The position numbers were made by a program, and so were the translations under genes. From contig CBDCYI010000005.1 of NCBI GenBank assembly GCA_965224085.1, positions 1,376,001-1,440,000 on the forward strand: DNA of 64,000 nucleotides, in the 5' to 3' direction. Origin of the DNA: Candidatus Marinacidobacterales bacterium. GTDB taxonomy: Bacteria; Acidobacteriota; Vicinamibacteria; Marinacidobacterales; SMYC01. Numbering within the stretch: the first letter of the stretch is position 1; every line of letters starts with the position of its first letter. Positions 23,102 to 62,923 of this stretch are shown piece by piece. Under the pieces are notes generated by a model, which saw only the letters and a program-made list of their open reading frames with translations, ran no database searches and was not told the DNA's origin.

Positions 23102-23171
23102 ACTAGGGGGATAGAATTTCCTTCCCGGCTCGCGAGCCTGGTCGAGCCGGCGATCCGTGGGAGGCGAACCC

Positions 23172-25625
23172 ATGTTGCGGAGATGTCTGCTTTACGTGGT
23201 CGGTTTTGGCCTGGGGCTCGCGTCGGCGAGCGGTCAAACGCTACGTTATCCAACGCTGGGCGGGCAGATCCGCGTGGAGGGTCATCTGCTGCCCGCGGTA
23301 TCGACGGGACCGCTCGACCCCAGCTGGAGCCCCGACGGCGAATGGCTCGCGTTCTCCATGCGCGGTGACATCTGGAAGCTCCCGGCGGAAGGAGGAGAGG
23401 CGGTCGCGCTGACCGAGGCGCCTGGCTATCACTTCGAGCCGGTGTGGAGCCCAGACGGATCCCGCCTGGCCCTCACGGTGGACCTCGACGGCAATCTCGA
23501 TATTGCTCTGGTGCGCGCCGAAGGGGGATCGATCGAACGATTGACGCAGGATCCGCACGTGGATATCCAGCCCGCCTGGAGCCCAGATGGACAGAGCCTT
23601 TACTTCGTCAGCGGCCGGGCAGGGAGCCTGGACATCTACCGTCTCGACCTTGCGAGCGGCGAGAAGATCCCGGTCGTGAGCGGCCAGCGACACGATATTC
23701 AGCCTTCCGTCTCGCCGGACGGGCGGCGCCTCGCCTATATCGCTCCGGTCCAGGGTCGTATGGGAAGCGGCGGCATTTGGGTCAAGCGCTTGCCGGATGG
23801 AGAGCCCGAGCTCTTGCATTACGAGGAGACTAGCTTCCGAGCGAAGCCGACCTGGACACCGAACGGTAGCGCCCTCGTCTACGTTTCGGATGCCGCCGGC
23901 TCGAACGACATTGCCGTCGTTCCCGCGAGCGGTGGCAACTACGTGCGGCTCACGGAGCATCCGATGGATGAGTACGCCCCGGTCGTGAGCCCGGATGGCT
24001 CCCGGATCGCCTTCGTCTCTAACCGAACCGGACCGACACGCCTTCACACGATGGCCGCCGGAGGGGGCGCGGGAGGGGCCTGGAGCCCGGTGCCGATCGA
24101 ATCCCGTCGCCCCCGAGTTGCGCACGGACGGCTGCGGGGCGAGGTGCGCAGAGCGGACGGAGCGGTCACGCCGGGACGGATCCTGCTTCTCGCGAGCGAC
24201 GGGCGGGCCTACGCGCCCGACGAAGGCTTTCATCGGGTGAGCTCGGTGAACGAGATCCACTATTTCCACACGCGGGACGCCTTCGAAGTGGAGCTCCCCG
24301 CCGGCGAGGTGAGCGTCGAGGTCGTGCGCGGCTTCGAGTATCAGCCACGGCCGGTTCGGGTCGACGTCCCCGTGGGAGGCACGGCCGACGTCGTGCTCAC
24401 GCTCGAGCGGCTCGTCGACGCTCCGGCGAGAGGCTGGTTCTCGGGAGACAACCACGTGCACGATCTCCACCAGGGACGATTCGGTCTCACCCAGGAGGAT
24501 TTCTTCTACCAGCTCGTCGCCGACGACCTGCACGTCGCGAATGCTCTCATCCACATGGACGGCACCAAGCTGATGGGACGGTGGAGCGATCTGACCGGGG
24601 AGCCCTTTCGGCTGTCCAATGACGATTACATTCTGTTCTACACCCAGGAGTTCAGGGGCTCCTTCGGCCACGTGGGTCTTCTGGGTGTCCAGCGTTTCAT
24701 CATGCCGCTCATCGGTGGGACGCGGGGGACACCCTACGCCGCGGACGTGTTGAAGGTTCGCTATCTCGACGAGGTGCGCTCTCAGGGTGGTATCGGGGGT
24801 TTTCTCCATCCCTATAACGGCTCGGTGGATACGCCGGAGCAGGCGGCCTCCTCCGACATCCCTCTGCACGTCGCGCTCGGCAAAGGGGATTTCTTCGACG
24901 TCGTCTGTATCGCGTCTGACGAGCTCTCGTCCGCGAAAATGTATTACCGCTTTCTGAACAGCGGCTTCCGCATTCCCGCGACCGGCGGGACGGACAATTT
25001 CAGCAACGTGTGGCGCGACCCGTCCGGCGGAACGGCCCGCACGTACGCGCACCTGGACGGAAAGCTCGGATATCGCGAGTGGCTTTCTGCCGTGAAAGCC
25101 GGGCGCACCTTCGCGACCAACGGCCCACTGCTGTTGTTCGAGGTGGAAGGGAAAGGCCCGGGTGAGGAGATCCGCTTGAAGCCGGGGGATCCCTCTGGTC
25201 TGAGCGTCAAGGCGGAGCTCGTCTCGATTGTACCAATCGACAAGCTCGAGATCCTGGTCAACGGGGAAGTCGTCGAGACCTCGCGACCGAGCGGTGACGG
25301 CACGCGCATGGAGGTTTCCGTCTCGGTCGACGTTCCGGGAAGCGGCTGGGTCGCGGCGCGGGTCATCGGGTCGAAGCACCGCTACGTGGGCGATAACTAT
25401 CCCTTCGCCCAGACCTCTCCGGTCTACGTCGAGCGCGAAGGTGCGCCCTTCGCGTCGGCCGAAGACGCCCGCTTTCTGCTCGAGGTGGTGAACGAGCTGT
25501 GGCGTCGCGTGGAGACCCGGGACGCCTGGCGCAGCGCAACCGAAAAGGAGACTTACCTTCGGGCGGTAGAGGAAGCGCGTTCGGCGTACCAGCGCGCCAT
25601 CGATATTGCAGAGGGTACCCAATAA
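23172..25625 (+). CDS. PD40/TolB-like beta-propeller fused to a CehA/McbA-type (PHP-like) metallohydrolase
   Basis: Repeated PxWSPDG motifs; GWFSGDNHVH, GHVGLLG, ATGGTD, AGRTFATNGP. Confidence 0.88.
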   Translation: MLRRCLLYVVGFGLGLASASGQTLRYPTLGGQIRVEGHLLPAVSTGPLDPSWSPDGEWLAFSMRGDIWKLPAEGGEAVALTEAPGYHFEPVWSPDGSRLALTVDLDGNLDIALVRAEGGSIERLTQDPHVDIQPAWSPDGQSLYFVSGRAGSLDIYRLDLASGEKIPVVSGQRHDIQPSVSPDGRRLAYIAPVQGRMGSGGIWVKRLPDGEPELLHYEETSFRAKPTWTPNGSALVYVSDAAGSNDIAVVPASGGNYVRLTEHPMDEYAPVVSPDGSRIAFVSNRTGPTRLHTMAAGGGAGGAWSPVPIESRRPRVAHGRLRGEVRRADGAVTPGRILLLASDGRAYAPDEGFHRVSSVNEIHYFHTRDAFEVELPAGEVSVEVVRGFEYQPRPVRVDVPVGGTADVVLTLERLVDAPARGWFSGDNHVHDLHQGRFGLTQEDFFYQLVADDLHVANALIHMDGTKLMGRWSDLTGEPFRLSNDDYILFYTQEFRGSFGHVGLLGVQRFIMPLIGGTRGTPYAADVLKVRYLDEVRSQGGIGGFLHPYNGSVDTPEQAASSDIPLHVALGKGDFFDVVCIASDELSSAKMYYRFLNSGFRIPATGGTDNFSNVWRDPSGGTARTYAHLDGKLGYREWLSAVKAGRTFATNGPLLLFEVEGKGPGEEIRLKPGDPSGLSVKAELVSIVPIDKLEILVNGEVVETSRPSGDGTRMEVSVSVDVPGSGWVAARVIGSKHRYVGDNYPFAQTSPVYVEREGAPFASAEDARFLLEVVNELWRRVETRDAWRSATEKETYLRAVEEARSAYQRAIDIAEGTQ

Positions 25626-25674
25626 AGCCTTGTTCGGGGTACTTTCGACTGACACTCCCGGCCGAAGGCATTTT

Positions 25675-27063
25675 TCATGATATGGATTGATCGGGAACGA
25701 GGCTGAAGCCGAGTCGGGTAGCTTTGCGTCGGAGATTACTCAGGAGGCGTTGCTGGTATTGCCTTTCATAGGCGTCCTGACCGAGCTCAATGAACTCCTC
25801 TCCAGTCGCAAGCATGCGGAAGTAGATGGTCGCTATTTTACGGGCGGTAGCTGTGATGGCCTTTGGAGCACCTCGTCGCGATCGGATTCGTCGATAGAAA
25901 GCGCCGAGCGCGGTTTGGGTATTGCGGACAGCGCACGCGGCGAGGCGAAAGAGTTTTGCAGCACGACTGGAGCTCATTGGGGTGGCCCGGCGAAAGATTC
26001 GACCAGCGGACTCCTTATTATTCGGTGCGAGAGCTAGCCATGAGGTGAAGTGCTTGTCACTTTTCCACGGGCTCATGTCGCAACCGGTTTCTCCTACGAG
26101 CTGCAGAACGGCATAGCTACCTAAGCCGGGAACCCTGGTTAGGTCCACCCCCGTGAGTCCCAATAGAGACTCAGCGAGCGGAAAGCGCGGCCCGTTGCCG
26201 CTACGCGCTCGCCGTGTCCGTGGTTTCGGCTTAGGCCGAGCGTCCTGAGGCCGGGTCTCCAATTTGGACAGGCATCTCTCGATCCGCTTGTCACAGTCTT
26301 CCATTTTCTCTTGATAGAAATCGTACAACTCCACCGACTGTTGAAGAGCGAAAACATGCTCGCTCCGATAGTTACCTTCTAAGGCTTTCGCGATCGTGGC
26401 CTCATCGTTGTGGCAACGTTCATGCCTCAGTTTTGCTAGGTCACGAGGATCTCGCTCTCCTCTCAAGATCGCTCGGATGATCGCAAGGCCGGTGACTCCG
26501 GTCACGTCGCGCAGGACGTGTTGTAGCTGGAGCCCCATTTGGTTGAGCGCTTTGTGCATATGCTGAATGTGGCGAGCCGCTGACTCCACCAGCGAGCTTC
26601 GTTGGCGGGTGTATGCCCTTAGCTCGCAAATCGCCGATTCCGGCCGAAAGGTTTTTGGGAGTAGCCCGAATGTATGCAGCTGTTGCAGCCACTCCGCATC
26701 CGACACGTCTGACTTGCGCCCAGATACGTTTTTCACTTTGCGAGCATCGACCAGATAGACTTCAAATCCCTCGTCTTCCAACAACTCGTACAGTGGAATC
26801 CAATAAACTCCGGTCGACTCCATCGCCACCGTGCACACGCCGCACGCCTTCAGCCAATTGGCCAGCTCTCGCAGCGAGCATACAAAGCTCTGAAACGTGC
26901 GGACATGTTCGCCCTCAGGAGTGCGCCCCTTCGGGACTGCCGCCACGATTGACTCCGCTCCAATATCAATCCCTGCAGCATCTAGATTTACCGTGTCGAG
27001 CTCGTGCTCCAATTTTTTCCGTCTTGCTTGACGACTGCTTTTTGTCCTGACGCGACGTGCCAT
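25675..27063 (-). CDS. IS110 DEDD recombinase/transposase
   Basis: AGIDIG (D), AMESTGVYW (E), KSDVSDA (DD), LAPNNKESAG (Ser loop), KAITATARKIA; ATG after AAGGAG. Confidence 0.96.
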   Translation of the reverse strand: MARRVRTKSSRQARRKKLEHELDTVNLDAAGIDIGAESIVAAVPKGRTPEGEHVRTFQSFVCSLRELANWLKACGVCTVAMESTGVYWIPLYELLEDEGFEVYLVDARKVKNVSGRKSDVSDAEWLQQLHTFGLLPKTFRPESAICELRAYTRQRSSLVESAARHIQHMHKALNQMGLQLQHVLRDVTGVTGLAIIRAILRGERDPRDLAKLRHERCHNDEATIAKALEGNYRSEHVFALQQSVELYDFYQEKMEDCDKRIERCLSKLETRPQDARPKPKPRTRRARSGNGPRFPLAESLLGLTGVDLTRVPGLGSYAVLQLVGETGCDMSPWKSDKHFTSWLALAPNNKESAGRIFRRATPMSSSRAAKLFRLAACAVRNTQTALGAFYRRIRSRRGAPKAITATARKIATIYFRMLATGEEFIELGQDAYERQYQQRLLSNLRRKATRLGFSLVPDQSIS

Positions 27064-27087
27064 TTCTCGCTCCTTTCGGCGCAACCA

Positions 27088-27236
27088 GGAGAGAGGGGCG
27101 ATTCAAAACATTCTTTCGAACGGGGTCATGCCTCGCGACATGCCACCACGGATACTCCCGCTAACCCTCCAGACCTTGCTGTCAAACGGGCACTGAGCAC
27201 CATCGTACCTTCGGCCTTGACTCCCGGCTGCACTCG
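27088..27236 (-). ncRNA. Putative IS110 bridge RNA (boundaries approximate)
   Basis: Two stem/internal-loop modules; loops contain GGUAC and UUUGACAG (target halves) and UCGAAAG (element end); TAGACT -10-like box at 27242-27247. Confidence 0.72.
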
Positions 27237-27348
27237 ATCGGAGTCTACTTCCTCCCACAGATCTCAAAGGGTCAGTCTCCGATTACCTTCGCCCGCCCGG
27301 GCGATGCCATTGCTGTCAAATTGAGCTGGTGACTGACAGAATGGTCCA

Positions 27349-28053
27349 ATGAAGACCGATGCGCCAAGCTACCACGGCTATCGATTTCCACCGGAAATCA
27401 TCAGCCACGCCGTCTGGCTCTACCACCGATTCTGCGTGAGCTTTCGAAACGTCGAAGAGCTGCTTGCTCAGCGAGGCATCACGGTTTCCTACGAAGCGAT
27501 CCGACTTTGGTGCATCAAGTTCGGGCCGGAATACGCTCGGCGACTGAAGCGTCGGCAGGGTCGCCTTGGTGACACGTGGCTCCTGGACGAGGTCTTCATA
27601 AAGATACAAGGCGAACGCCAATACCTCTGGCGCGCGGTAGACCAAGATGGTGATGTGATTGATATCCTCGTCCAGCCTCGCCGTGATCAGAAAGCCGCCA
27701 AACGATTCTTCCGCAAGCTGTTGAAAGGGCAAGGCCGTCCGCCCTGGCAGCTGGTCACCGACAAACTGAGAAGCTACAGCGCCGCTCACCGCGAGGTCAT
27801 GCCGTCCGTCGTCCACGACACTGACCAGTACAGAAACAACCTAGCCGAAGTCTCGCACGAACCGACGCGACAACGGGAACGACAGATGCGGAAGTTTAAA
27901 ACTCCTGGGCAGGCGCAACGATTCTTGACCGTGCATGGACTCGTGCAAAACCTCTTTCGCGTCGGACGGCATTTGTTGCAAGCGCATCATCATCGGGAGC
28001 TACGAGACCGCGCTTTCATCGTCTGGCAGGAGGTAACCTGTGCCGTCCGATGA
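27349..28053 (+). CDS. IS6 family DDE transposase
   Basis: YRFPPEII, WLLDEV, YLWRAVDQDG, LVTDKLRSY, NNLAEVSH. Confidence 0.97.
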   Translation: MKTDAPSYHGYRFPPEIISHAVWLYHRFCVSFRNVEELLAQRGITVSYEAIRLWCIKFGPEYARRLKRRQGRLGDTWLLDEVFIKIQGERQYLWRAVDQDGDVIDILVQPRRDQKAAKRFFRKLLKGQGRPPWQLVTDKLRSYSAAHREVMPSVVHDTDQYRNNLAEVSHEPTRQRERQMRKFKTPGQAQRFLTVHGLVQNLFRVGRHLLQAHHHRELRDRAFIVWQEVTCAVR

Positions 28054-28185
28054 GAGCAAAGGAAATCAGCTCGACGCAATAGGTTCGCTCGCTCAACGTC
28101 AACTTGACAATACCTGCGATAGCGCGATTTTCGAACTGCCCGGCGCGCGCCGTGATGAATAAAGGGAAGGGACGGGGAGAACACC

Positions 28186-29538
28186 CTACTCGGCGAGGTC
28201 GCGAAGCGTTTCGCGAACGGTCTCGAGGCCGAAGGTCTTTCCCAACGGCATGTCCGCGATCGTCGTCATCACGGACGCCGCCAAGTCGGCCTGGTCGTAC
28301 GGGGGTGGGTCCACGAGTTTGCCGTCGCGCCGAGCAGCCGCGACCTGTTCGAGAAATGCCAGATAGGCGTCCGCTTCGTCTTCGAGCTTGTATTGGGACT
28401 CGACGTGCTCGCGGGCGAAGCGGCCCATCGCGTGTCGAAGCTGCGGCTTCTCGTAGAACAGCTGGAGCGTCCGCGCGATCGCCTCGACTTCGGGGGGGCC
28501 GAGATCGATGCGAGCCACGGTGTGCTCGGGAAATTCGACGAACGGGCCCGTGTTCGAGACGAGGACGGGCTTTCCCATGCCGAGCGTCCGGATGAGCGTC
28601 CCCGACAGCTCGCCCGTCGACGGAAAGCGGAGGTTCACGACGACGTCGCAGGCCAAGATGTACAGATAGAACTTATCCATGGGCTGGCGGCCCGTGAGGA
28701 CGAGCTTGTCGCGGAAAGCTGCGGTGTCGGCGATCGTTTCTAGGTCGTAGCTGCTTTGCACTTCGCCGACGACGAGAAAACGCGCATCGGCACCCGTCTC
28801 CAAGAATCGCTTGAAGCCTAAGAGAGCGCGGTCGATGCGCTTCGAGCGCGCCGCGAGTCCGAAGGCCGCGACCAGGAACGCGTCGTCTGGAAGGCCGAGC
28901 ATGCGTCGCGCTTCCAAAGGGGTGTTGACCGGAAGTGGCGGTGGCGGGGCGTAGTGATGTGGGGCGCGGCCGATGAACTTTCCCACCGGTACCGAGCCGA
29001 AACGCTCTTCCAGCCAGCGCTGCATGAATCTCGTCAGGACCAAAACTCCGTAGCTGCGCTCGACCATCCGCTCGCAAAGGGGAAACTTCGACGTCAGGAG
29101 GTCGCTCCCGAGCGCGGCGGCGATCTGACGGCCGAGCGCGGCGCCTCGTTCGCCATAGGCGCGCTTCATCTCGGATACATAGAGCGCCGCGTCCCCGCGC
29201 TCGACCGACAAGCCGAGAAACAAGTGCTGGAGCACCAGGTCATGAAGCACGACCACACCCGGAAAGCGCAGCGCGGCGTTCAGCGCGTAGCGATGAAACG
29301 CGCTATTGCCGATTTGATAGAGATTGAGGTCAAACGCCTCGCGCGCGGCCACCTCTTCGTACTCGCGCGCATAGTGCCACTCGAAGCTCTCTAGGATTTC
29401 GGGGTTGTCAGGCTCGTAGTCTTCGACGAACAAGTGAATGTCGGCGCCGCCGTTCTGGAGGTACGGAAGAAGCTCCTCGCTATAGTCGGCGATGCCCGTC
29501 CCTTTCGGAGAGAGCGGACTCCAGAAGGCGAGCTTCAT
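28186..29538 (-). CDS. Glycosyltransferase family 4
   Basis: SPLSPKGTGIADYS, YQIGNS, VVLHD, VNLRFPSTGELSG, GKPVLVS. Confidence 0.9.
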   Translation of the reverse strand: MKLAFWSPLSPKGTGIADYSEELLPYLQNGGADIHLFVEDYEPDNPEILESFEWHYAREYEEVAAREAFDLNLYQIGNSAFHRYALNAALRFPGVVVLHDLVLQHLFLGLSVERGDAALYVSEMKRAYGERGAALGRQIAAALGSDLLTSKFPLCERMVERSYGVLVLTRFMQRWLEERFGSVPVGKFIGRAPHHYAPPPPLPVNTPLEARRMLGLPDDAFLVAAFGLAARSKRIDRALLGFKRFLETGADARFLVVGEVQSSYDLETIADTAAFRDKLVLTGRQPMDKFYLYILACDVVVNLRFPSTGELSGTLIRTLGMGKPVLVSNTGPFVEFPEHTVARIDLGPPEVEAIARTLQLFYEKPQLRHAMGRFAREHVESQYKLEDEADAYLAFLEQVAAARRDGKLVDPPPYDQADLAASVMTTIADMPLGKTFGLETVRETLRDLAE

Positions 29539-62117: not shown

Positions 62118-62923
62118 GGTACTGTCAAATTGAGCTGGTGACTGACAGAATGGTCCAATGAAGACCGATGCGCCAAGCTACCACGGCTATCGATTTCCAC
62201 CGGAAATCATCAGCCACGCCGTCTGGCTCTACCACCGATTCTGCGTGAGCTTTCGAAACGTCGAAGAGCTGCTTGCTCAGCGAGGCATCACGGTTTCCTA
62301 CGAAGCGATCCGACTTTGGTGCATCAAGTTCGGGCCGGAATACGCTCGGCGACTGAAGCGTCGGCAGGGTCGCCTTGGTGACACGTGGCTCCTGGACGAG
62401 GTCCTCATAAAGATACAAGGCGAACGCCAATACCTCTGGCGCGCGGTAGACCAAGATGGTGATGTGATTGATATCCTCGTCCAGCCTCGCCGTGATCAGA
62501 AAGCCGCCAAACGATTCTTCCGCAAGCTGTTGAAAGGGCAAGGCCGTCCGCCCTGGCAGCTGGTCACCGACAAACTGAGAAGCTACAGCGCCGCTCACCG
62601 CGAGGTCATGCCGTCCGTCGTCCACGACACTGACCAGTACAGAAACAACCTAGCCGAAGTCTCGCACGAACCGACGCGACAACGGGAACGACAGATGCGG
62701 AAGTTTAAAGCTCCTGGGCAGGCGCAACGATTCTTGACCGTGCATGGACTCGTGCAAAACCTCTTTCGCGTCGGACGGCATTTGTTGCAAGCGCATCATC
62801 ATCGGGAGCTACGAGACCGCGCTTTCATCGTCTGGCAGGAGGTAACCTGTGCCGTCCGATGAGAGCAAAGGAAATCAGCTCGACGCAATAGGTTCGCTCG
62901 CTCAACGTCAACTTGACAATACC
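62118..62923 (+). mobile_element. IS6-family element copy 2, intact (806 bp)
   Basis: Left IR GGTACTGTCAAATTGA, right IR TCAACTTGACAATACC; near-identical to copy 1. Confidence 0.97.
62158..62862 (+). CDS. IS6 family DDE transposase
   Basis: Same protein as 27349-28053 except F/L and T/A substitutions. Confidence 0.97.
   Translation: MKTDAPSYHGYRFPPEIISHAVWLYHRFCVSFRNVEELLAQRGITVSYEAIRLWCIKFGPEYARRLKRRQGRLGDTWLLDEVLIKIQGERQYLWRAVDQDGDVIDILVQPRRDQKAAKRFFRKLLKGQGRPPWQLVTDKLRSYSAAHREVMPSVVHDTDQYRNNLAEVSHEPTRQRERQMRKFKAPGQAQRFLTVHGLVQNLFRVGRHLLQAHHHRELRDRAFIVWQEVTCAVR

Follow-up and report, generated by a model that had tools for sequence, protein, structure and literature searches.

Our analysis covered a stretch of 64,000 nucleotides from a Candidatus Marinacidobacterales bacterium, referred to here as the window. 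At the locus of interest an insertion sequence of the IS110 family sits in the end of an IS6-family element. The genes and DNA features are as follows.

25642-27314, minus strand: IS110-family insertion sequence, both 2-bp core copies included (1,671 bp with one core counted)
25675-27063, minus strand: gene for the transposase (recombinase) of 462 aa; AAGGAG lies 8 nt upstream of its ATG
27313-27314: core dinucleotide of the left junction, AG on the transposase strand and CT on the plus strand; second copy at 25642-25643
27291-27302, minus strand: GC-rich hairpin GCCCGGGCGGGC, located 10 nt in from the left end
27278-27290, minus strand: left-end segment X, GAAGGTAATCGGA, with the GC hairpin on one side and the inverted-repeat arm on the other
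27271-27277, minus strand: subterminal inverted repeat, arm at the left end, reading GACTGAC on the transposase strand; partner at 25647-25653
27315-27340, plus strand: outer part of the IS6-family element's terminal inverted repeat, which is the left half of the target
27349-28053, plus strand: IS6-family transposase gene (Pfam DDE_Tnp_IS240, NCBIfam transpos_IS6)

The 462-aa transposase matched the Pfam families DEDD_Tnp_IS110 (PF01548; E 5.7e-25, 88.3 bits against a cut-off of 29) and Transposase_20 (PF02371; E 2.3e-08, 34.7 bits against a cut-off of 21.3) as well as the NCBIfam model NF033542, ‘IS110 family RNA-guided transposase’ (259.4 bits against a cut-off of 140). Its match to the IS621 structure (8wt6 chain A) was weak, with an E of 1.2e-05. 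This weak alignment brings GID, the E of MESTG and ES-G/ESAG into register and does not reach the third and fourth acidic residues. The element belongs to a widespread clade with soil, marine and plasmid-borne relatives, and the only database name carried by the plasmid relatives is ‘IS110 family transposase’.

The boundaries of the element were mapped by comparing seven full copies and 18 miniature copies with 10 empty sites, i.e. uninterrupted IS6 ends, in the same genome. The seven copies share an identical span at 99.8-100% identity, with flanks that diverge outside it, and the whole genome has 7 full elements of 1,671 bp, 4 truncated copies and a 66-bp miniature derivative that is present 18 times. 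Written in the sense of the transposase, the empty site is ...CAGCTCAATTTGACAG|TACC (...TTTGACAG|TACC where it is set beside the element), the left junction ...TTTGACAG-CAATGGCATC... and the right junction ...GTCAGTCGAAAG-TACC. The crossover is AG on the transposase strand because these are the sole 2 bp common to the empty site and both junctions. The copies and empty sites also assign TTG (27310-27312) to the element and GTCAAA (27315-27320) to the target. Two claims of an earlier note, made from the sequence alone, are thereby borne out: that the 3 nt beyond the core at this hybrid junction are of the donor side and not of the target side, and that the strand carrying the CT core is the one opposite the recombinase. 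AG is the core in all parsed orthologues except for one subclade with AA.

At all 25 of 25 complete insertions the left neighbour is TTGACAG and the right one TACC; farther out the bases vary. The target thus spans 11 bp, TTGAC-AG-TACC; the target sequence of the element is TTGACAGTACC. At this locus the IS6-family element was hit within its terminal inverted repeat, 4 bp in (GGTA|CT|GTCAAATTGAGC...), and the tip of that repeat, GGTA, has been displaced to 25638-25641; empty IS6 ends elsewhere in the genome read GGTACTGTCAAATTGAGCTGG... The element is intact and recently active. It lives as a parasite in the terminal repeat of an IS6-family element, and together with its miniature form it occupies at least 25 sites in the genome.

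The two noncoding ends are of very different length, 249 nt from the left end (27312) to the ATG (27063) versus 31 nt after the stop codon. Each end carries one arm of a subterminal inverted repeat, which is 7 bp long here and 6-10 bp long at equivalent places in 18/18 distinct orthologues, where its sequence differs. The two arms are not symmetric in position: at the right end 2-5 nt separate the arm from the core, and at the left end it lies at +31 to +40. By eye, most left ends of orthologues have a GC hairpin at the same position, as does the 66-bp miniature element, which retains the hairpin, segment X and both repeat arms.

The leader of ~250 nt upstream of the transposase has a two-loop layout that is conserved in 23 aligned orthologues. 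We consider it very probable that the stretch encodes the bridge (seek) RNA of this intact IS110-family insertion sequence. Loop 1 would read the target, and the 3’ strand of loop 2 would read the right end plus the core. The parts of the RNA gene are:

27242-27247, minus strand: possible -10 box TAGACT, which would put the RNA start near 27235
27088-27235, minus strand: predicted bridge RNA, extent approximate
27171-27217, minus strand: loop 1, the predicted target-binding loop, with outer stem AGGCC/GGUCU and inner hairpin at 27187-27203
27217-27213 and 27175-27171, minus strand: AGGCC and GGUCU, the two sides of the loop 1 outer stem
27204-27212, minus strand: loop 1 5’ strand, GAAGGUACG
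27176-27186, minus strand: loop 1 3’ strand, UUUGAC-AG-CAA (UUUGACAGCAA), corresponding to left flank (6), core (2) and putative handshake guide (3)
27149-27158, minus strand: loop 2 5’ strand, GGAGUAUCCG, the ‘guide that does not fit’
27113-27120, minus strand: loop 2 (donor loop) 3’ strand, UUCGAA-AG, corresponding to the last 5 nt of the right end plus the core

Bridge-RNA architecture had been proposed in the earlier note, and the strings of its modules were all recovered on the minus strand by direct reading. The architecture now finds support in the IS110-family transposase directly downstream, in covarying stems and in the covariation of guides with DNA. For the donor-loop hairpin, CAUGUC-GCGA-GGCAUG, the hairpin itself and the strings on either side (GAGUAUCC before, UCGAAAGAAUG after) are indeed present, but to call the hairpin ‘flanked’ by them was loose, as conserved GUGGUGG and ACCCCGU intervene.

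RNAalifold returned a consensus of 17 pairs for the 23 orthologues, 9/17 with compensatory changes. Paired alignment cells amounted to 95%, compared to 82% in shuffles (0/500 reached 95%) and 28-50% when the partners were slid. The loop 1 consensus consists of GRCCG, a 5’ strand of 7-9 nt, an NN-UGGUGC...GCCCG hairpin, 6 nt + AG + 3 nt, and GGUCY. That of loop 2 consists of a 5’ strand of ~10 nt, an NN-UGGUGAC...GAUCCCG hairpin, and UU + 4 nt + AG + A-N-U-G/A; a reliable alignment of its outer stem was not achieved. Folds of a single sequence are not informative alone: for 27088-27250 (163 nt) the stability was not above that of shuffles (z -0.48), and a fold of 249 nt gave a z of -2.05. An Rfam scan of 25000-28500 with E up to 10 returned two chance-level hits and no bridge-RNA family.

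Metatranscriptome contigs (four runs, one study) span 26939-27227, 27051-27246 and 27077-27235, and a fourth extends from 27157 through the left junction into the flank of another copy. Contigs of this kind cannot define RNA ends, and RNA libraries may contain DNA, which makes DNA carry-over possible. We took them to show presence in such libraries and no more, and regions that no contig covers carry no information. The contigs are compatible with a start near 27235, downstream of the TAGACT box, and a motif like TGTATGCT, GGTATAAT or GTAGACT is seen by eye at the same place in orthologue leaders. A scan of 25500-27500 for sigma-70 promoters and terminators found none. Taken together, expression of the bridge RNA is weakly indicated.

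For covariation analysis we gathered 53 related loci from genomes, with protein identities of 39-59%, and then a further 80 from metagenomes. The automatic parser handled 71/136 loci; the remaining 65, which comprised short contigs, loci with divergent loop 1 hairpins (Bacteroidota-type, L048-L052) and loci where junctions were not found, were excluded from the 13-group and guide-sense permutation tests. Outside the set of 18 orthologues are L015, L021, L023, L029 and L049, where the junction or loop 2 was not resolved, and L016, L017 and L019 (tandem copy or contig end) were omitted from right-flank tests. The search windows of each orthologue were probed with its own guides, the guides of other clades serving as control. 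With the junctions of orthologues found using the guides themselves, and independent boundaries coming only from this genome and two multi-copy families, three of the four guide strands covary as expected with flanks and ends, which is the check among homologues that the earlier note had named.

The loop 1 3’ strand would pair with TTG-CT-GTCAAA on the plus strand, and the same sequence is present across the left junction at 27310-27320. The identity of 27176-27186 and 27310-27320 had been noticed before, and we found that the 11-mer, TTGCTGTCAAA, occurs exactly twice in the 64-kb window, compared to 0.02 occurrences expected. When the 10-mer made up of left flank (6), core and 2 further nt was searched with up to two mismatches, own guides found a match ~100 nt upstream in 21/22 cases and guides of other clades in 20/432.

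The part of this strand beyond the core was of particular interest, as it had been suggested to form a ‘handshake’ with the donor after strand exchange. This match extends to relatives of the element: in 16/19 orthologues, but in only 56/306 cross-clade pairs, the dinucleotide that follows the core is the one with which the element begins, and six different dinucleotides are matched among the orthologues. The third nt matches in 2/19 and also in the closest relatives L068 and L075 (CGA/CGA), so that the handshake match is 3 nt long in this element and its two nearest relatives. Opposite the target’s own bases (GTA on the opposite strand) CAA pairs at the middle position only, whereas pairing to the donor is full. 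Post-exchange handshake pairing is described for IS621 as promoting insertion and hindering excision (PMC11208158, PMC13626964). By this analogy CAA would pair only after strand exchange, favouring insertion and disfavouring excision. The analogy is sound, and the principle is not new because an insertion-favouring handshake has already been published for IS621.

The sequence of the loop 2 3’ strand recurs at 25642-25648 on the other strand, and CTTTCGA at 27113-27119 is identical to this other element end as reported earlier. The match alone proves nothing because the 7-mer is common (24 in the window vs 17.2 expected); it is position and orthologue covariation that give it meaning. Indeed, when the 7-mer of U, 4 nt and the core was searched, exact matches after the stop codon were obtained in 16/21 own cases and in 5/412 with guides of other clades, and 13 different tetranucleotides are represented. 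The nt after the core in loop 2 did not match the target (1/16 own vs 5/222 cross-clade), which means that only one of the two handshake guides of IS621 is seen. A reading of the loop 2 3’ extension AAUG as matching the start of the left end, (C)AATG, fits only this element, L017 and L013 by eye, and we judged it to be chance because the A-N-U-G/A motif is conserved whatever the left end.

We wondered what the 5’ strand of loop 2 might read. The earlier note had remarked that the position-equivalent left donor guide, GAGUAUC, does not match the donor flank CCATTGC and that donor recognition may therefore differ from IS621. Direct reading agrees with the first point, and the orthologues agree with the second. 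In the equivalent register, the loop 2 5’ strand of the 18 orthologues was no more complementary to the core plus the start of the own left end than to that of others (3.67 vs 3.64 of 7), and core-adjacent pairing gave no signal in all three registers with G-U allowed. The misfit is a property of the clade and not of this copy because core-adjacent complementarity is absent in all 18 orthologues. In this clade, the strand is no core-adjacent left donor guide.

Other partners of the loop 2 5’ strand were sought in LE 1-16, in the 16 nt after the left repeat arm, in RE -30..-15 and at the circle junction. In either sense the outcome was null or weak, the best of these weak pairings being a same-sense one with right end, core and right flank (p ~0.03). 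A complementary partner was sought anywhere inside nine elements and none was consistent, and a column-by-column scan was dominated by conserved columns. In contrast to these segments, segment X, which comprises the 12-15 nt core-proximal of the left repeat arm and lies ~20-33 nt inside the left end, resembled the loop 2 5’ strand in the same sense. Under a best-local-match statistic that is permissive, the own score across 13 groups (65 loci) was 6.39 compared to 5.59 of 8 (0/50,000 permutations), and with identity only it was 5.56 compared to 4.50 (0/50,000 permutations). The segment beside the left-end repeat arm is our leading candidate for a partner of the loop 2 5’ strand.

Two readings of the donor loop have to be weighed. 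According to the first, the loop 2 5’ strand is merely structural or protein-binding, and the recombinase reads the left donor side through the subterminal inverted repeats and the hairpin, complemented by the post-exchange handshake. This agrees with the lack of core-adjacent pairing in any of the 18 orthologues and with the presence of long repeats in 18/18 of them, and for ISEc11 a short seekRNA with target matches only was reported to suffice for movement (PMC11187229). Yet the strand varies freely between clades, unlike a protein-binding motif, and its covariation with segment X is left unexplained. We regard protein recognition of this kind as a serious possibility, if somewhat short of probable.

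According to the second reading, the loop 2 5’ strand is a real donor guide. It would pair with segment X on the same strand as the loop 2 3’ strand does, i.e. the one opposite the transposase, so that the contacts lie just inside the repeat arms and the first ~20 nt of the left end (8 nt plus the GC hairpin) form a looped-out tether. The covariation has a single peak, at offset -10 relative to the repeat arm (own 5.83 vs 4.39; the next best difference is 0.8), and was reached by 0/20,000 clade-level permutations in two tests, by 0/50,000 with 13 groups and by 1/20,000 in a further test. LE 1-16, the 16 nt after the arm, RE -30..-15 and the loop 1 5’ strand were null as controls, and over six control segments or senses the outcome was null or weak. 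The 66-bp miniature element, moreover, keeps the hairpin, X and both repeat arms. On the other hand, the likeness is imperfect, with a mean of 5.6/8 identical, while the loop 2 3’ strand is mostly exact. It reaches 9/9 in L044, but in the present element 5/8 nt are identical (7/8 with G-U pairs), and one large clade (L014-L019 and the soil set) shows only 5-6 of 8. Pairing with X would also bind the strand opposite to that bound by the left donor guide of IS621, and it has no structural precedent. We therefore hold this reading as a tentative one that is possible and open to considerable doubt.

If segment X is indeed read by the loop 2 5’ strand, the donor would be held by two contacts on one and the same strand, just inside the repeat arms, and the left-end tether would deliver the cut strand to the handshake guide. 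This full picture strikes us as rather unlikely as it stands. Such a donor geometry, possibly with a folded or cruciform-like donor, has no described counterpart in IS621 or in IS1111 elements. Bridge RNAs of this subgroup may already be included in the work of Durrant et al. (Supplementary Table 5, Extended Data Fig. 10c).

Within the loop 1 5’ strand, GGUAC at 27205-27209 complements the core G and the right flank TACC on the transposase strand. Among orthologues, complementarity of this strand to right end, core and right flank was 6.14 for own and 5.48 of 8 for other sites (0/20,000 permutations), and complementarity of at least 6 of 7 was reached in 5/15 own compared to 6/192 cross-clade comparisons. 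Both senses fit in this element because GTAC is a palindrome. Accordingly, the strand (CGAAGGUAC) could also be thought to pair in the same sense with the right junction CGAAAGTAC, which would place both loop 1 strands on the strand opposite the transposase. Here 8/9 nt are identical and 9/9 pair with one G-T, and the left end also has CGAAGGTA (27284-27294 vs 27206-27216). Across orthologues, however, this sense is null (own 5.45 vs 5.40; 7,518/20,000 permutations, against 0/20,000 for the complementary one), and GCATCAC vs G|CATCAG in L014 fits only the complementary sense. We rejected the same-sense reading on the strength of these permutations and consider it very unlikely.

Finally, it is extremely unlikely that there is no guide RNA at all and that the transposase mRNA has an ordinary structured 5’ UTR in this leader, with repeats arising from target duplication or chance: RNA-library contigs do connect the region with the first part of the coding sequence (26939-27227) and the single-sequence fold is unexceptional, but the guides differ between clades and track each clade’s own flanks and ends, the 11-mer is not a target duplication because only 2 bp are duplicated, and the IS110 family has been described as RNA-guided on experimental grounds (PMC11208158, PMC11208160, PMC11187229).

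With the stretch very probably encoding a bridge RNA, the interesting point of this element is the 5’ strand of the donor loop, the handshake being ordinary and the strand order of the IS1111 type. Bridge recombinases are under engineering as programmable tools for genome rearrangement, and mechanistic knowledge of them comes nearly all from IS621. The donor-loop 5’ strand breaks the rule of IS621, and if the alternative pairing is true, the design rules for donor loops differ for such orthologues. The element also offers a natural system with a 3-nt handshake, and its 66-bp mobilisable mini-donor defines the requirements in cis: hairpin, segment X, repeat arms and 5-nt ends.

We compared the element with known systems, starting with IS621 (Durrant et al., 2024; Hiraizumi et al., 2024; Hiraizumi et al., 2026; PMC11208158, PMC11208160, PMC13626964). 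The likeness is extensive. In both, the RNA gene lies in a long noncoding end upstream of a recombinase (DEDD/serine in IS621, predicted to be so here) and forms two internal loops that are each closed by a hairpin. Loop 1 reads the core and both target flanks, the loop 2 3’ strand reads one element end plus the core, and a handshake guide of 2-3 nt follows the core in the loop 1 3’ strand and matches the donor, not the target. The core is of the CT type with an invariant T (A on the transposase strand here) and a variable other base. A long left end and a short right end (249 nt vs 31 nt) are likewise a feature of the IS110 group.

The differences from IS621 concern mainly orientation. In IS621, each loop is described as pairing by its 5’ strand to the bottom strand and by its 3’ strand to the top one, where ‘top’ means the transposase strand, which reads right end - CT - left end (PMC11208160, PMC11208158). 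The element studied here departs from this rule of CT on the transposase strand: the order of guides is reversed and the core on the transposase strand is AG. Both 3’ loop strands have the sense of the transposase strand and hence pair with the opposite strand. The suggestion that orientation may differ from IS621 is thus supported, in a form that is known from IS1111-type seekRNAs (PMC11187229). Read on the opposite strand, the element would give the IS621 scheme, with target GGTA-CT-GTCAAA and donor ...CCATTG-CT-TTCGA. By analogy, GGUAC would act as left target guide, UUUGAC-AG as right target guide and UCGAA-AG as right donor guide, and the handshake would be CAA paired with donor TTG. The whole recognition frame is therefore flipped relative to the genes. 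In addition, the loop 2 3’ strand reads the right end here and the left end in IS621, the loop 1 3’ guide is the longer one here (8 nt vs 5), and a core-adjacent left donor guide and a loop 2 handshake were not found in this element. Its inverted repeats are 6-10 bp and asymmetric compared to 2-3 bp in IS621, and its protein has 462 aa compared to 326-328 aa (E 1.2e-05 to the solved chain).

IS1111-type seekRNAs are described as carrying the top-strand complement 5’ of the bottom-strand match (PMC11187229; PMC13604230 Table 1). Taking published targets as drawn in IS orientation, the same strand order is found here. This likeness to ISEc11, ISPa11 and ISKpn4 (Siddiquee et al., 2024), where the complement of the transposase-sense strand lies 5’ of that of the bottom strand, is accompanied by subterminal inverted repeats (7-17 bp in IS1111 elements, 7 bp here), by a short extension beyond the right arm (~3 nt plus core) and by a conserved target in other mobile elements or repeats. 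The RNA gene, in contrast, lies upstream of the transposase here and downstream in IS1111, where a few upstream exceptions such as ISMtsp17 are mentioned (PMC11187229). Neither the extensions of 7 bp on the left and 3 bp on the right nor a transposase of 330-350 aa, both typical of IS1111, are found in this element: its left extension is ~35 nt with a GC hairpin compared to 7 bp, and its transposase has 462 aa. The repeats also differ in length, 6-10 bp here compared to 11-13.

Elements of the IS1111 family, IS4321 and IS5075, reportedly target the terminal repeats of Tn21-family transposons. The present element resembles them in having a fixed natural target position within the terminal inverted repeat of another transposable element, and differs in the host element, which is of the IS6 family here, and in the target sequence. 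The clade shows that the upstream position of the RNA gene and the IS1111-like strand order of the guides are separable traits, which bears on the relationship between the IS110 and IS1111 groups. Judged by the described features, the element is a hybrid of IS110 and IS1111 organisations.

The 11-bp target of the IS110-family element (TTGAC-AG-TACC) is also occupied by a miniature derivative of that element, only 66 bp long, which we found at 18 loci in the genome of the window (e.g. C5:1299417 and C4:1656096). The derivative is composed of the left end (positions 1 to about 45, comprising the GC hairpin, segment X and the repeat arm) joined to the right repeat arm and TCGAAAG. It resembles a non-autonomous element that depends on the IS110-family element for its mobility. 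None of the 18 loci lies within positions 25000-28500 of the window; 13 of them reside in IS6 terminal repeats. This repeat, GGTACTGTCAAATTGAGC, is the preferred target of the IS110-family element, and the genome contains numerous copies of the IS6-family element that carries it. The following features of the window are concerned:

27315-28053, IS6-family element
about 62122-62269 (G000:C5:1438122-1438269), further IS6 end, unoccupied
23157-25625, plus strand, ORF of 822 aa, 3' end 12 bp short of the displaced tip of the IS6 repeat

The gap of 12 bp between ORF and repeat tip thus places the IS6 element a short distance downstream of an intact gene.

Elsewhere in the genome, one IS6 end (C4:1695222-1695363) reads ...CTCAATTCGAAAGTACC. 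The IS6 repeat is followed here by TCGAAAG, the last 7 nt of the IS110-family element, and then by TACC, as if an inserted IS110-family element had undergone near-total deletion.

Within the window's IS110-family element, four look-alikes of CGRRRGUA occur in the same sense:

right end, core and flank
5' strand of loop 1, the bridge RNA's target-binding loop
segment X, between the GC hairpin and the repeat arm
5' strand of loop 2, the donor loop

The repeat pairs behind them are 25639-25662 with 27205-27228 (family D2) and 27284-27294 with 27206-27216 (family D3). TACTTTCG, which lies at the right junction, could pair with the loop-2 5' strand at 8 of 8 positions, two of these pairs being G-T. 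On comparison, the look-alike pattern did not recur in the orthologues.

In two related genomes (L016 and L017) the right end plus AG runs directly into a same-family left end (GTGGGG-AG-CAGAGTTATGCCCG), which indicates tandem copies arranged head to tail, or else a circle junction that has integrated. Proteobacterial relatives with 48-55% identity (L066 on a Citrobacter plasmid, L067 on a Bradyrhizobium plasmid, L020 and L021) have the core AA and are inserted immediately past an A-run (..TTAAAAAAC or ..CCTAAAAAAC), within a sequence that resembles another transposase gene; 61 Citrobacter plasmid records were matched. Two multi-copy relatives from acidobacterial genomes (L022-L039) are inserted after TGTCATCC(T/C/A)GAG, a repeated motif of extragenic type. 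Their handshake dinucleotides, the 2 nt after the core in the loop-1 3' strand, differ (CA versus TC), and each matches its own left end.
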